From: Lytechinus pictus
Lineage: Eukaryota
DNA: 64,000 bases
Assembly (NCBI RefSeq): GCF_037042905.1
Contig: NC_087245.1
Coordinates: 2,358,001 to 2,422,000, forward strand
Reading direction: 5' to 3'
Part shown: in pieces, positions 16,738 through 23,741 of the stretch
Numbering within the stretch: the stretch's first letter is position 1
Layout of the letters: each line of letters starts with the position of its first letter
The notes under the pieces: generated by a model
Told to the model about the DNA's origin: nothing
The model's input: only the letters and a program-made list of their open reading frames with translations
The model's database searches: none
Translations under genes and position numbers: made by a program

Positions 16738-17624
16738 CAATAGAGAAAAATCAAACAACAATAAACGCTGAAAATTTCATCAAAATCGGATGTAAAATAA
16801 GTTATGACATTTTAGAGTTTCGCTCATTTTTCACATAAGAGTTCCATGCTCAAGTCAGTGATATGCAAATGAGAGAGTCGATGTCACTCACTCAATACTT
16901 CTTTTGTTTTTTATTGTTTGAATTATACAATATTTCAATTCTTATAGATTTGACAATTAGGGCCCTCTTGTTTGAACCACAAAATGTTAAAACAATCATA
17001 TTCCACATGTTCAGGAGGGGATGAAACTTCCCATGACAATAAGGAGAAAATTGGGATATTTCATATTTCACATAATAAAATACAAAAGAAATAGTGAGTG
17101 GGTGATGTCATCGGCCCCTTCATTTGCACACTGACCAGGATGTGCATATAACTGTTTTGTGAAATTTAACGAAACAGTGATATGAACAACTGCGTGACAT
17201 GCAAATGAGTCAGTCGATGATGTCTGTCACTCACTATTTCTTTTGTTTTTTATTGTTTGAATTATACAATATTTCATTTTTTACAAATTTGACAATACGG
17301 ACCAACTTGACCATATAATATTAAATAATGCTAATTCCACGCGTTCAGGGAGGAATTAATTGTTGTTTCACTTGACAATGAGGAGAAAATCAGAATATTT
17401 CATATTACATAAATAAAATACAAAAGAAATAGTGAGTGGATGATGTCATCAGTCTGCCAATTTGCATACCGATCAGGATGTGCATATAACTGTTTTGTGA
17501 AATTTAATGAAAATTTAAAATGTCATAACTTTCTCATTTTACATCAGATTTTGATGAAATTTCTGTGTTATGCTTGTTTGAATTTTTTATTCAAATCATA
17601 TTTTTGTTGGGTTGGACTTGTCCT
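16738..17624 (+). mobile_element. Kolobok-like MITE family D, left-truncated with duplicated core
   Basis: Homologous to 20396-20988; right end GGACTTGTCCT|TTAA; the internal core occurs twice. Confidence 0.8.
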
Positions 17625-18221
17625 TTAATAAAGACTTTATTAATGGTTTGTAAAAGACATGACTGAAATTGAACTTTTGACCCCTAGAAAGTTTGAACAC
17701 AATTGATGCAGATATAAAAGAATGAGAAAGTGACCTTTAGACTCCCAGATAACATTTGAACCCACCATCTTCAACAAATATTTGGCTTTAACAATAAATC
17801 ATTCCTTTCAAGTTTGAACAATACTGATGAAGAAAACAAATGACCTTTCGACCCCTAGATGACCTTTGACCTCATCAGCACACACACGGGGTATATTTCC
17901 CAAGGCCAAGGATTATTGGAACAAAGTGTGAGTACAGTTGATGCGGAAATAAAGAAATGCAAGCAAGTAAAAATAAAACCTTCACATTTTCATAACATAC
18001 ATGTACATCCCCTGTGTAAAAGTAGAATAGTCTCGACACCCATGTATAATACATGTACATGTAATAGCAAATGGGAAGATCTATTTCCTATAGAGGGACA
18101 ATTGATCTGAGATTGAGGGGAAAGGGCCATTTCTTTTATATGTAGGCCTATCTACTTTGTTTATTTAATTACTCATGTATTTTTCTTTTATTCTTGATTT
18201 TTCCAATGAATTTTCCTGCAG

Positions 18222-18292
18222 GCTTTTATTCAATCATAATTACTACAAAATTAATCAGTCATTTGTGAATTCCATGACAGTTTCCAACGAAG
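18222..18292 (+). other. Candidate internal exon (71 nt)
   Basis: Pyrimidine-rich acceptor TTTTCCTGCAG; donor AAG|GTAAAT; open frame LLFNHNYYKINQSFVNSMTVSNE. Confidence 0.35.
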
Positions 18293-19336
18293 GTAAATGA
18301 TCTTCTCTGCAAGATGATAAATATGAAAGTGGAGTGCCTCTGGCGGTCTCACCTGCATCATGCGATTCAATATAGCAGCAGTGCTGACTTTGAAAACTAC
18401 TATAAAATAATTGTTCACAAAAACACCATTCATATAATGATACAATACTATGTTCATTGACAATAAATTATATTTGACCTTGATCGTGCAACCTAAGACT
18501 TGTCAGTGATACTTGATAACCCATATATCCACATTTTATAAACTCTATCTATAAACTTTAAAAAAAGTTATGACAGCAATGAGATGTTCAGTTATATACT
18601 TGATTACTGTTATATCCAACTAAGTTTAATGAAATAGATCCATACACTTTCAGAGTAATGATGGTTATTCAACATATTGACCTTGAATGACCAGTGACCT
18701 TGGTCGTGTGACCTGAAACTTGCACAGGATGTTTAGTGATACGTGATTACTCTTATGTCCAAGTTTCATGAATCAGATCCATAAACATTCAAAGTTATGA
18801 TGGTAATTCGTCAAATACATGTACCCCTAACATGGCCAAAACTTAATTGCCCTTTGACCTTGGCAATGTGACCTGAAACTCAAACAGGATGTTCAGTGAA
18901 ACTTGATTACTCTTATGTCCATGTTTCATGAATCACATCCATAAACACTAAAAGTTGTGATGGTAATTCAACAGATACCCCCAACTTGGCCAAAGTTCAT
19001 TGACCTTAAATGACCTTTGACCTTGATCATGTGACCTCAAACTCACACAAGATGTTCAGTGAAACTTGATTATTCTTATGTCCATGTTTCATGAATCACA
19101 TCCATAAACATTAAAAGTTGTGATGGTAATTCAACAGATACCCCCAACTTGGCCAAAGTTCATTGACCCTAAAGGACCTTTGACCTTGGTCATGTGACCT
19201 GAAACTCAGGCAGAATGTTAAGTAATACTTGATTAACCTTATGTCCAAGTTTTATGAACTAGGTCCATATATTTCTAAGTTATGATGGCATTTCAAAAAC
19301 TTAACCTTCGGTCAAGATTTGGTGTTGACAACGCCG

Positions 19337-21051
19337 CACAGTGGGCCGGGGCGAAACAAAATGCGCCAAAAGTCATTTTGGGCAATTTCAGATTTTTAAT
19401 TTTTGTCATGCCCAGCAGAAAGACAACACTTTGAAGAATACTTCAGCAAAATATTTCATTCGGGAATTTGCATAAAGGTTGTTAATTTCCTACCTCAAAT
19501 CGTAAAAAATGTGACGTTTTGCGAAATGCCGCGTATATGACAACTTAGTTGAAAAACAAGCCATTTCACAGGAGGTTTATAGGATAATTATTCCTCGAAA
19601 TAGGCTGATAATGTTTTTTGCATTTATATTAGAAACTTTTAGATTTCCATGGATTTCCATTTAAATTCTATCATCATCATTTTCCCCAATGTCTAAGCTT
19701 TAAGTCGATACCAAATTTAGCTGCCTGTTTTCGCCCGTTTTCATGATCGAGCCGATTTTACTTGACACAACACCCCCAAAACCTGTTAAAAAACGGTCAT
19801 TTTTATATCGCGCAGTCATCGCATCGCACCGTGTGGGGTGTACATTGTCGCCGTTCACTTTTGCAAGGCGAGGACGATTCCCCTTCCATTCCATGAAAAT
19901 GACATGAATTCCGGGCTTAATGTAAACAAAATGAAGGTTGATAACGCATATAAGGGCTATACCCACAACTCTTCCAGAGATAAAACCTACTTGTAGAATA
20001 TTTTCAGCCAAAAGCCCTCCTCATAGTAAAACATTTGTGGTGTTTTATACTCTGCGTTTTACCCAAGTCTACACAGCTTGATAAAGCACAGTTAATACTT
20101 TTCAGATTTTAAAGTATATATTTAATCTAATGTTCATTAGATGCCATAAAATTATTTTCAGGATCTGATACACTTTTTAGGCAAGTGAGATGCATAAACC
20201 AACATTCACTCTGGTCAATCTTAAAGTAACACATAACACAGAGTTTATATACTGCACATTGTTTAGCGTAATTTGTCTTTTCACAGATGGGTTTTAGGTA
20301 GCCAATCAAAATTTGGTATCAAAGTGACGTCACATCGGCTTTAATTTATGTCCAGTCGATTCTACGCCCAAAATTACCATGAGTCTACAAGTTAAAGGTC
20401 AAGTCCACCCCAGAAAAATGTTGATTTCAATCAATAGAGAAAAATCTAACAAGCATAATGCTGAAAATTTCATCAAAATCGGATGTAAAATAAGAAAGTG
20501 ACATTTTAAAGTTTCAATTATTTTTCTCAAAACAATTATATGCACAACTCAGTGATATGCAAATGAGAGAGTCGATGATGTCCATCACTCACTGTTTCTT
20601 TTGTTATTTATTGTTTGAATTATACAATATTTGAAATTTTACAGAATTGACAATAATGTAGCTAACTTGACTGAACCACATAATGTTAAACAATGTTAAT
20701 TCCACATGTTCAGGGAGAAATAAACTCAATTTCACATGACAAGGGGGAGAAAATCAAAATATTTCATATTTCAAATAGTAAAAGAAATAGTGAGTGGGTG
20801 ACGTCATCAGTCCCCTCATTTGCATACCAACCAGGGTGTGCATATAACTGTTTCGTGAAATTAAGCGAACTTTAAAAGGCCATAACTTTCTTATTTTACA
20901 TAGGATTTTGATGAAATTTTCAGTGTTATGTTTGTTGGATTTTTCTCTTTTTATTCAAATCCACTTTTTATTAGGGTGGACTTGTCCTTTAAGTAAAGTA
21001 TATCAAGGAATATAATTTTGGCGCACTTTCAACTCATTCTGGCCCACTGTG
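19337..21051. mobile_element. Non-autonomous Transib/RAG-like transposon with RSS-like ends
   Basis: TIR CACAGTGGGCC plus shared TGCGCCAAAA further in. CGCCG duplicated at 19332-19336 and 21052-21056 (GC-rich 5-bp TSD, as for Transib and RAG). No transposase ORF recognised. Confidence 0.78.
20396..20988 (+). mobile_element. Kolobok-like MITE family D, complete, nested in the Transib-like element
   Basis: TTAA TSD; TIR AGG(T/A)CAAGTCCACCC; long imperfect arms. Confidence 0.9.
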
Positions 21052-21443
21052 CGCCGCTGTCGGAAAAGCGGCGCCTATAGTCTAATTCTGCTATGTAGGT
21101 AATACAAAAACTGCACATTTTCAAATGTGTGGTATTTTTTGTGAGATTGGTCTCAAAAGTTGTTCAAGAAAACAAGTGGAATGCCTCTGGCATTCTCCCC
21201 TGCATTAAGCAATGCGATATAGCAGCAGTGCTTCCTTTGAAAATAGCTAATGAATACTATTCACAGAAGAAAACACTAATATGATAATAAAATATTATGC
21301 CCATTGACCCAAAATGACCTTTGACCATGATCATGTGACCTAAGACATGTGCAAAACAATCATTCATACTTGATTATCCTTCTGTCGAAGTTTCATGAGC
21401 TAGATCCATAAACTCCCTTGGTTATGATGCCAATTCAACATAT

Positions 21444-23741
21444 GGGCATTTTCACCACAGATGGACACACAGGCAAAAAAATCAAGTTGATATTCATGTC
21501 AAATGCTTTATGTTTTTTAATAATACAAGACCTGAAGTTTCTGAGACAAAGATTTTTTCCGACTCTGGCAGACATTTTTTATTTCAAAATGGCTGCCAAA
21601 GTATGGATACAAATTAGTGTTGAAAATAGTATATTGATACATATTTCGTTTTGACAGATTTTTAAAGAACAGGTTTGATCATGTTTTCGCCTGTGATTTA
21701 GCTTGCTATTATTACAATTTTTAAAATCCCACAGAAAGAAACACCAGTAATTCATTCATCTGATTAAAAAACATTTATGAAGTATGTGATATGGTATTAA
21801 TGTCAGTTACTGAAATCATGAACTTTTTTTTCTCATTTCCTGGAAAAGAGGATATATTATATGAAACTTGGTAGATTTCCTCTCTAGGTAACACCCCTCC
21901 CTTCTACGCCAAAATTAAAGATTACCAATTAACAATGAAGCCATAGGGTACCATTAAATATATGTAATGTCAGTTACCAAGTGGAAAATGTAATGTCAGT
22001 TACCGATATGTAATGTCAGTTACCATGATAAAACATTGGTTACCAATATTGAAGTGCAAATATGTGGTCAATTTTATGGTGAAGAAATATTGTATACTTG
22101 TTATTTAAGTCTTTCCCTTTAAAAGTCACACCAGAAGGAGCTTGCTATTGACTTTTAGAAGGTATAGTTCACAAGGAATACTATATGAAATTATGAAGGA
22201 AGTTGCATCCCATTGTGCAAAAAAAAAATTACTATGAAATTGTTTTGTACATGCACTTACCAAGTACCTAATTTTTGTATCAGACAATTTTTTGTTTGGT
22301 TTTCAGGGGGGGTGTAGTGGGGGTACTTTTCACGACCTATTACCTAAATCTGCAACATTTTTTAAGCTAACATTGTGATGAAGGGGATTTCCAGGGTCCC
22401 TTTTTAGTTTCTAGGATTCTTTTGAGCATTGCCTCGCTAAAAGTAAATTCCTGGTTTTTATGCCTGTTATTAGTGTGGATGTGTGATACATTTTTTGTTT
22501 TTGGTTTACAAGTATAGATGAAAAGTGAAATTTGACAGTTCTGATCAATGTTGCATGGATCTACTAAAACTGTTTTTTTTTTTCTAATTTACAAATAGTT
22601 CAGTTTCAGTTTAGAAGCTGGATTTTTTGTTGACAGCTTAAAAAAGAAATTAGCAAAGAAAATGATTAAACAAATTATGAAGAGAATAGAAATCCGACAG
22701 ATATGAACAAGCATTGCTTGCACTGACCAGAATAAAAATCAATAAAACTACATGGCTGCATGAGATTCGGGGGAGGGGTACGTGTAGCCTAGGGGAGGAG
22801 ACCAATATTCATTTTGCCTTTTTTGAGGGGAGGGAGAGGTTGGAGAAGGAAAAGGTTTAAAAAAGTCAATATAAAACTGATGAATATATTATGGGTGTAT
22901 AGTCAGAAAAATCCATGTGTACAGTCAATTCAATATTAAATTACTATAGGAAAACATGTAGCTGCTATGACCCCCCCCCCCCCCCGAGTAAGTAAAACAT
23001 ACATTTGTTATCTTTTGAAAATTAAAAATGTGAAGTATTATGAAATTTTTATGATTTAAAAAAGCCTTACATATAAGTACCAAGAAAATTATGCCTTTGA
23101 AAGTCATATAGCACTGGTAAATGTTAATGTGTATTGTCAGTTACCAACAAGTAACGATAAAAATGTTCAAATCAAAGAAAGGAATTAAGAAAAAGAAAAA
23201 GTTTTTTCATTGAAATGTTCCTAGAAACTCGGGTATACTTCCACATCAAGCTCACTTTCATGTGAAGCCCTGCACAGAAGATACAATGCAATGATTCCAC
23301 ACATTTGACTTCCATGTGTTATCTCTATGGCAAATTAGGTGTAATGTCAGTTACCAGCATGGTTGCGGAAAAATTATCATAGCTCCCAAAAGACAAAAAC
23401 TAATTGTTTAATATTTTGACACATCTTAACCTAGTAATGGATGTATATTTACATATTCAAATTATTACTCTATCTACTCAGGGACATGAGATATTTCAAT
23501 TTTAATAAACACCCTGAAATTCCATGTCCTTTTGCGTAATGTCAGTTACCGACACATTTTTGCTTGCTGATGCGTAATAAAATGTGGTTACATACAAAAA
23601 ATTAGTATCAGAGTATACAGCAAGGTTCACTTTATTAACTCTATCAAAAGCAAACTCCCATCATGTGTTTTTTTAGAGGTACACACAATGAAAGGTGTGA
23701 AAACATTGTGCCGTGTAATGTCAGTTACCGTGAAAATGCCC
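21444..23741. mobile_element. Non-autonomous Sola2-like element, 2.3 kb
   Basis: Perfect 12-bp TIR GGGCATTTTCAC; 4-bp TSD ATAT/ACAT; about 8 same-orientation GTAATGTCAGTTACC motifs. Confidence 0.8.

Follow-up and report, generated by a model that had tools for sequence, protein, structure and literature searches.

The feature at 19337..21051 of the window (the whole 64,000-nucleotide stretch of Lytechinus pictus DNA that was analyzed) is a single worn copy from a Transib-type transposon family that is abundant and carries no gene; as such it is an ordinary find. We put the probability at about 0.9 that it is a decayed copy of a non-autonomous element of the Transib superfamily, a relative of Transib-N1_SP with symmetric RSS23-like ends, which would be moved in trans by a Transib transposase. 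This assignment draws on the ends, the target-site duplication and the published relative rather than on a partner enzyme in this genome. The initial annotation had proposed a non-autonomous Transib-type element whose ends form an asymmetric 12/23 pair of V(D)J recombination signals (RSS). The element type held, but the 12/23 asymmetry is an artifact of one decayed copy.

Direct reading of the sequence placed the termini of the window element at CACAGTG (19337-19343) and CACTGTG (21045-21051), so that both heptamers named in the initial annotation are present, the second as the reverse complement. The left terminal inverted repeat (TIR; 19337..19374, plus strand) comprises the heptamer, a spacer at 19344-19365 and the box CCAAAAGTC at 19366-19374, that is, 22 bases past the heptamer. 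Within this spacer, 12 bases (GGCCGGGGCGAA) separate the heptamer from the word ACAAAATGC at 19356-19364. The right TIR (21013..21051, minus strand), read as the reverse complement, comprises CACAGTG (21051-21045), a 23-bp spacer (21044-21022) and the box CCAAAATTA (21021-21013). The duplication CGCCG, also correctly noted before, was read directly on the left (19332..19336) and is identical on the right (21052..21056), where the family-wide duplication data agree with the direct reading. A 21-nt inverted repeat spans both ends of the element (repeat finder, pair I4) and extends into the flanks only because the target is a near-palindrome, GACAACGCCGCTGTC.

The window element is non-coding and gene-less. 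The first part of its body (19375..20391, plus strand) is 89-96% identical to other copies and has no cross-copy conserved frame and no Pfam match; the last part (20993..21012, plus strand), likewise non-coding, was delimited by comparison with other copies. Minus its nested MITE the element measures 1,124-1,125 bp, in agreement with the ~1.1 kb given earlier for a non-autonomous Transib-type element with GC-rich 5-bp duplications. The longest stop-free frame in the window element is 106 amino acids, and among 26 copies the longest frames ranged from 66 to 106 amino acids, lay on varying strands and had no Pfam match. No Pfam domain was found in the three frames of at least 110 amino acids within 9000-32000 of the window, and no Rfam family was found in 17000-23000.

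The nested MITE (20392..20992, ~600 bp) is unrelated to the element and present in high copy number. It was delimited by three inverted-repeat pairs (I1-I3 of the repeat finder) as a near-palindrome with arms of at least 108 nt and TTAA at both borders, included in the span, and MITE-free Transib-type copies read ATG-TTAA-AGTAAAA at its insertion site. The near-palindrome extends over almost the full length of the MITE, which is about 72% self-complementary, and a first look at the genome gave at least 2,391 candidates. Four other MITE copies are homologous to one another from T(T)AAAGG onward, and the duplication made by the MITE could be TA, TWA or TTAA.

The first 124 bases of the window element gave 367 candidate places in the 812-Mb genome. 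All 40 of the candidates that were scored were 98-100% identical to these bases, and each of the 39 places other than the window copy was 125 bases long, one base longer than the window copy. The end pattern GTGGGCC-N16-GCGCCAAAA matched the genome 772 times (395 + 377) while the reversed control matched it 0 + 0 times, which is far beyond chance. Splitting the matches on one spacer position set apart 127 and 109 ends that belong to a second family of ~2 kb (about 110 copies) and to rare variants; about 536 ends remained for the ~1.2-kb family that contains the window copy, and thus roughly 270 copies of this family. The 26 complete copies of the ~1.2-kb family were 93.1-97.5% identical to their majority sequence, with the window copy at 94.9%. 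Copies that diverge by 2.5-7% from the majority give no sign of current activity; the family is middle-aged, with no pair of sampled copies pointing to very recent movement.

The sister family carries the ends GGCCAGGAGAGAGCAAAAGTGCG-CCAAAACTG and GGCCAGAATGAACCCAAAGTGCG-CCAAAACCC on contigs C1-C18 (for example at loci L048, L049, and L053-L055), and C13 holds a cluster of many of its copies at 13.87-14.14 Mb. Three places on C11 show a rare variant of the ends, GGCCGGGGAAGAACTAAAGTGCG, which is nearer to the spacer of Transib-N1_SP. One variant copy (L052, C11:196990-202990) is broken by a LINE that encodes an endonuclease and a reverse transcriptase, and no right end was found within 6 kb of it.

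Both ends of the ~1.2-kb family are TIRs of ~38 bp with a CAC-heptamer, a spacer of ~23 bp and an A-rich, nonamer-like box. A 23-bp spacer was found at 772 ends genome-wide and a 22-bp spacer at only six, each of which arose by a different one-base loss. The left end of the window copy is one of these six. It reads ACAAAA-TGCG where the other copies read ACAAAAGTGCG (18 plus-oriented loci and the consensus of 25 copies), and all 18 printed plus-oriented loci read ACAAAAGTGCGCC. The family left end is therefore the heptamer, 23 bp and CCAAAAGTC, from which the window copy has lost one G. Left and right consensus sequences aligned without gaps and were equal at 29 of 39 positions, the differences being confined to spacer positions 5-15 and box positions 7 and 9. 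The plan common to both ends is CACAGTG, GGCC, 11 variable bases and AAAGTGCGCCAAAA, and the ends of the sister family follow the same plan. The initial annotation had allowed for a symmetric 22/23 motif as the conserved signal; the symmetry of the block was borne out, but its spacing is 23 bp at both ends and the 22 bp is private to the window copy.

The word at the 12-bp position is less constant than the block that contains it. At 5′-type ends it is ACAAAAGTG, GCAAAAGTG, ACTAAAGTG or ACCAAAATG, and at 3′-type ends it is TTGAAAGTG, CCCAAAGTG or GTCAAAGTG; its sole constant part in this genome is AAAGTG, which is constant at both ends. The word thus varies by end and by family, and it is ACCAAAGTG in the printed termini of Transib-N1_SP, so the ACAAAA after the 12-bp spacer is not conserved. 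Nor is the likeness to the RSS nonamer distinctive. The left word had been scored as 6/9, the value found for the family word ACAAAAGTG, but the window word ACAAAATGC itself matches ACAAAAACC at 7/9, and in both the element and the window some 2% of 9-mers reach at least 6/9 against that nonamer.

It is highly improbable, given these observations, that the ends act as a true 12/23 pair, with ACAAAA at 12 bp on the left, CCAAAA at 23 bp on the right and a RAG-like pairing of unlike ends. The 5′ end of both families does have CAAAAGTG at the 12-bp position where the 3′ end has GAAAGTG or CAAAGTG, and some insect Transib families are reported to have 12/23-like ends (Kapitonov and Jurka, 2005; PMC1131882). 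However, the full 23-bp box is present at the left end too, the right end likewise carries an AAA run 12 bp from its heptamer, and the two ends are alike without gaps over the positions counted above. The same block stands 23 bp away at both ends, and the termini printed for Transib-N1_SP are identical to each other, with ACCAAAGTG at the 12-bp position. What looks like a 12-signal on the left is formed by the upstream margin of the conserved block, and the private one-base deletion adds to the impression; the pair of unlike signals proposed for this copy is not upheld. The reading with symmetric, 23-bp-spaced Transib ends is preferred.

Target-site duplications were scored in a sample of 30 further loci (L002-L030 and L056), in which a right end was required 900-1,600 bp from the left end. 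Five loci without a right end in this range (L002, L012, L018, L020, and L025) were dropped, and the remaining 25 and the window copy made up the 26 complete copies. An exact 5-bp duplication was present in 24 of the 26 and none in the other two. The duplicated sequences were CGCCG (seven copies), CGGCG (six), CGACG (six), CGTCG (two), CATCG, CAGCG, and CGCTG (one each), with the consensus CGNCG (C in 26/26, G in 23/26, any base, C in 24/26, G in 25/26). An earlier pass over 22 copies had given 18 exact 5-bp duplications and two more within CGG repeats. A CACTA-type element (EnSpm/Chapaev) whose 2-4 bp duplication merely resembles one of 5 bp inside a CG repeat would share termini that begin with CAC, and the target of the window copy is indeed CG-rich. 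Against this, the exact 5-bp duplications lie at different sites and include the non-repetitive CATCG, CAGCG, and CGCTG; their frequency rules out both the 2-bp duplication, about which the initial annotation had been cautious, and the 2-4 bp EnSpm/Chapaev alternative. EnSpm/CACTA/Chapaev was accordingly rejected, with a probability close to nil, and the 5-bp duplication of a Transib-type element was retained.

Immediately to the left of the window element (18676..19331) lies an older repeat in which a 163-bp unit recurs in tandem three to four times, and the element sits within a CG-rich stretch of that repeat that is an insertion hot spot. The flanks of the window element recur around L003, L014, L015, and L026, where the element has the opposite orientation, and around L056, where it has the same orientation. 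At L053 a copy of the sister family with the same left flank lies directly beside a copy of the main family. Flanks shared in both orientations indicate a hot spot that was independently hit many times and not a single insertion copied with its host repeat. In the host of the hot spot, a CG-rich stretch of the (GCC)n type comes after the 163-bp tandem units (18676-19336 and 21052-21130 of the window). Transib-type elements also land side by side (L020, L023, and L053); the likely reason is that the CGNCG target is duplicated at each insertion. One flank of Transib-N1_SP given in the 2005 supplement (…CATGTTCACGCCG) resembles the host sequence in the window.

The ends and the duplication both point to Transib. 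According to Kapitonov and Jurka (2005; PMC1131882), no superfamily other than Transib has 5-bp duplications, Transib targets are GC-rich and most Transib TIRs are RSS23-like. The ends of the window family are similar to those of a published Transib family from another sea urchin, Transib-N1_SP of Strongylocentrotus purpuratus, whose printed termini are perfectly symmetric, with CACAGTGGGCCAGGGAGGAACCAAAGTGCGCCAAAA at either end, and for which the duplications CGGCG, CGACG, and CGCCG are printed (PMC1131882, file 1, Fig. S4g). The window family and Transib-N1_SP share CACAGTG, GGCC, AAAGTGCGCCAAAA at 23-bp spacing and the 5-bp CGNCG duplication. By hand count over the printed termini, Transib-N1_SP matches the left end at 32 of 36 positions and the right end at 28 of 36, with all differences in the 11 variable spacer bases. 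Besides the host species, the two families differ in that the printed ends of Transib-N1_SP are identical whereas those of the window family differ from each other in the spacer. Transib-N1_SP is likewise non-coding, and measures about 0.6-1 kb compared with 1.2 kb. A sea urchin also provides an example of the expected kind of partner enzyme for the window family: Transib1_SP is described as an autonomous element of 4,132 bp that encodes a 676-amino-acid transposase, and its duplication CGGCG fits the same target (PMC1131882).

Comparison with other systems bears on how the ends should be described. Truly unlike, RSS12/RSS23-like ends have been reported for Transib5 of Drosophila and for Transib2_AG and TransibN1-3_AG of Anopheles (PMC1131882, Fig. 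4C; PMC8355894). These insect families share the superfamily, the kind of heptamer and the 5-bp duplication with the window family, whose ends differ from theirs in being co-linear and 23/23. In the 2005 paper these few insect families were the ground for stating that “even the 12/23 rule can be derived” from Transib (PMC1131882), and Yakovenko and colleagues (2021; PMC8355894) built a hypothesis on asymmetric insect Transib families; elements of this kind and the 12/23 idea have thus both been published before. V(D)J RSSs have in common with the ends of the window element the heptamer, an A-rich box 23 bp away and a class of enzyme with a 5-bp, GC-rich staggered target. Unlike V(D)J RSSs, the element ends lack 12/23 asymmetry, have a box of the form CCAAAA(G/T/C)xx that matches the nonamer at 5-7 of 9 positions, carry a conserved GGCC and AAAGTGCG in the “spacer,” and are transposon ends rather than flanks of gene segments.

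We infer the acting enzyme and the reaction chemistry for the window family from these likenesses. The gene-less element would be mobilized in trans by a Transib transposase, an enzyme of the DDE class that is related to the RAG1 core. This transposase would recognize and bind the two like ends, that is, CACAGTG, GGCC, 11 variable bases and AAAGTGCGCCAAAA, and would cut at the border of the heptamer by a nick-hairpin reaction. Insertion with a 5-bp stagger into CG-rich CGNCG targets may then produce the 5-bp duplication. The nick-hairpin, 5-bp-stagger reaction of Transib is that of Hencken (2012) and Liu (2019) as summarized by Martin (2020; PMC7204232) and Martin (2023; PMC10629977).

A counterpart of Transib1_SP was not found in this genome with the Pfam RAG1 profile (PF12940) or in the long copies that were opened. 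Long copies were sought by pairing ends by hand among the first 100 of the 772 matches listed for the main family (on C1-C2) and among 100 of the 127 plus 100 of the 109 ends for the sister family. The initial annotation had looked to longer copies with the same ends for a Transib or RAG1-core protein, and no transposase frame was present in the eight long or open-ended copies with family ends (L048-L055). These proved to be ordinary copies with nested inserts, LINE or Penelope-like where Pfam names them, and L056 was a plain 1.2-kb copy. Eight further long end pairs of the sister family, about 6.1-9.7 kb in length, lie outside the opened copies.

With PF12940, the profile search of the genome yielded 17 places at a threshold of E ≤ 0.001 and 22 when E was allowed up to 10. 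The strongly matching RAG1-like loci were 34-100% identical to one intact 612-amino-acid frame by blastp, a comparison that left out the five weakest PF12940 places (E 0.009-0.024). The identity reported for Transib is below 22% (Martin, 2020; PMC7204232), and the strongly matching loci are therefore of RAGL type and not Transib. A representative search with the RAG1-like frame returned 486 relatives, and the three low-identity ones checked among the best 150 of the 486 matched amphioxus RAG1L best when compared with solved structures. The RAG2 Pfam model had no match, in a search that was uninformative by its own warning.

Two intact RAG1-like core frames were present, one of 612 amino acids (C182:16498-18156, the same as on C233) and one of 624 amino acids (C4:15674907-15676589), which are 49% identical to each other. 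The identical RAG1-like copies on C182 and C233 are probably two contigs of one locus. Broken RAG1-like fragments were found on C2, C5, C9, C10, and C13; those on C9 (L061, C9:18156000-18164500) form a tandem array with a 4.09-kb period, 98% unit identity and internal sub-repeats, in which no transposon ends were seen. The multiplicity of RAG1-like sequences is consistent with reports that sea urchins carry multiple copies of RAG1L.

The presence of RAG1-like genes raises the question of whether the family is a substrate of sea urchin RAG1-like/RAG2-like proteins, mobilized or excised by them in line with the “guardian” idea (Yakovenko, 2021), and not a substrate of a canonical Transib transposase. 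The intact core frames on C182/C233 and C4 speak for this, as do the heptamer, which equals the RSS consensus, and the report that V(D)J recombination can be initiated by sea urchin RAG1L in combination with the RAG2 of the mouse (Carmona, 2016; PMC4840297). Even so, we consider this a weak rival and very unlikely. The RAGL transposons described by Martin (2020, 2023), namely ProtoRAG, protostome RAGL-B and PflRAGL-A, resemble the window element in the CAC start and the GC-rich 5-bp duplication, but their ends are described as A-rich right after the heptamer, with AAA at positions 8-10 (PMC7204232) or a “TR2” (PMC10629977). The window element reads GGC at positions 8-10, has no such A-rich TR2 beside the heptamer, and was not found with a RAG1L-RAG2L cargo or neighbor. 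No family end was located within 1.5 kb of any RAG1-like locus, and among the end-pattern matches listed none was closer than about 32 kb to one. In addition, sea urchin RAGL genes have been described as immobile and without TIRs (Yakovenko, 2023). The initial annotation had named an echinoderm Transib or a RAG-like transposase as possible partners; the ends, the duplication and Transib-N1_SP favor the Transib type, and no link to a RAG-like transposase was found. Mobilization by a Transib transposase remains the preferred reading.

Each end of the family combines an RSS heptamer with two A-runs, ~12 and ~23 bp away and one helical turn apart (…AAAGTGCGCCAAAA…). There is a slim chance that such “double-box” ends can be read as either a 12- or a 23-signal, and that the several hundred copies are natural substrates of sea urchin RAG1L/RAG2L and a model of how the 12/23 arrangement originated. 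If so, they could model the origin of 12- and 23-signals from one symmetric end by loss of a box, and the “Transib seed” and “guardian” hypotheses could be tested in an animal possessing RAGL genes as well as Transib ends.

As a Transib-type family, the window element and its copies add a species-specific relative to a kind of transposon published in 2005, for which RSS-like ends, GC-rich 5-bp duplications and presence in sea urchins were already described (Kapitonov and Jurka, 2005). The finding would be of interest to specialists only if a working transposase were found or if the ends proved to be acted on by sea urchin RAG-like proteins. Its practical use is to annotators, who should mask the two families as Transib-N elements instead of taking their ends for recombination signals; together these families amount to about 380 copies, with a sharp CGNCG target and a hot spot in an older repeat.
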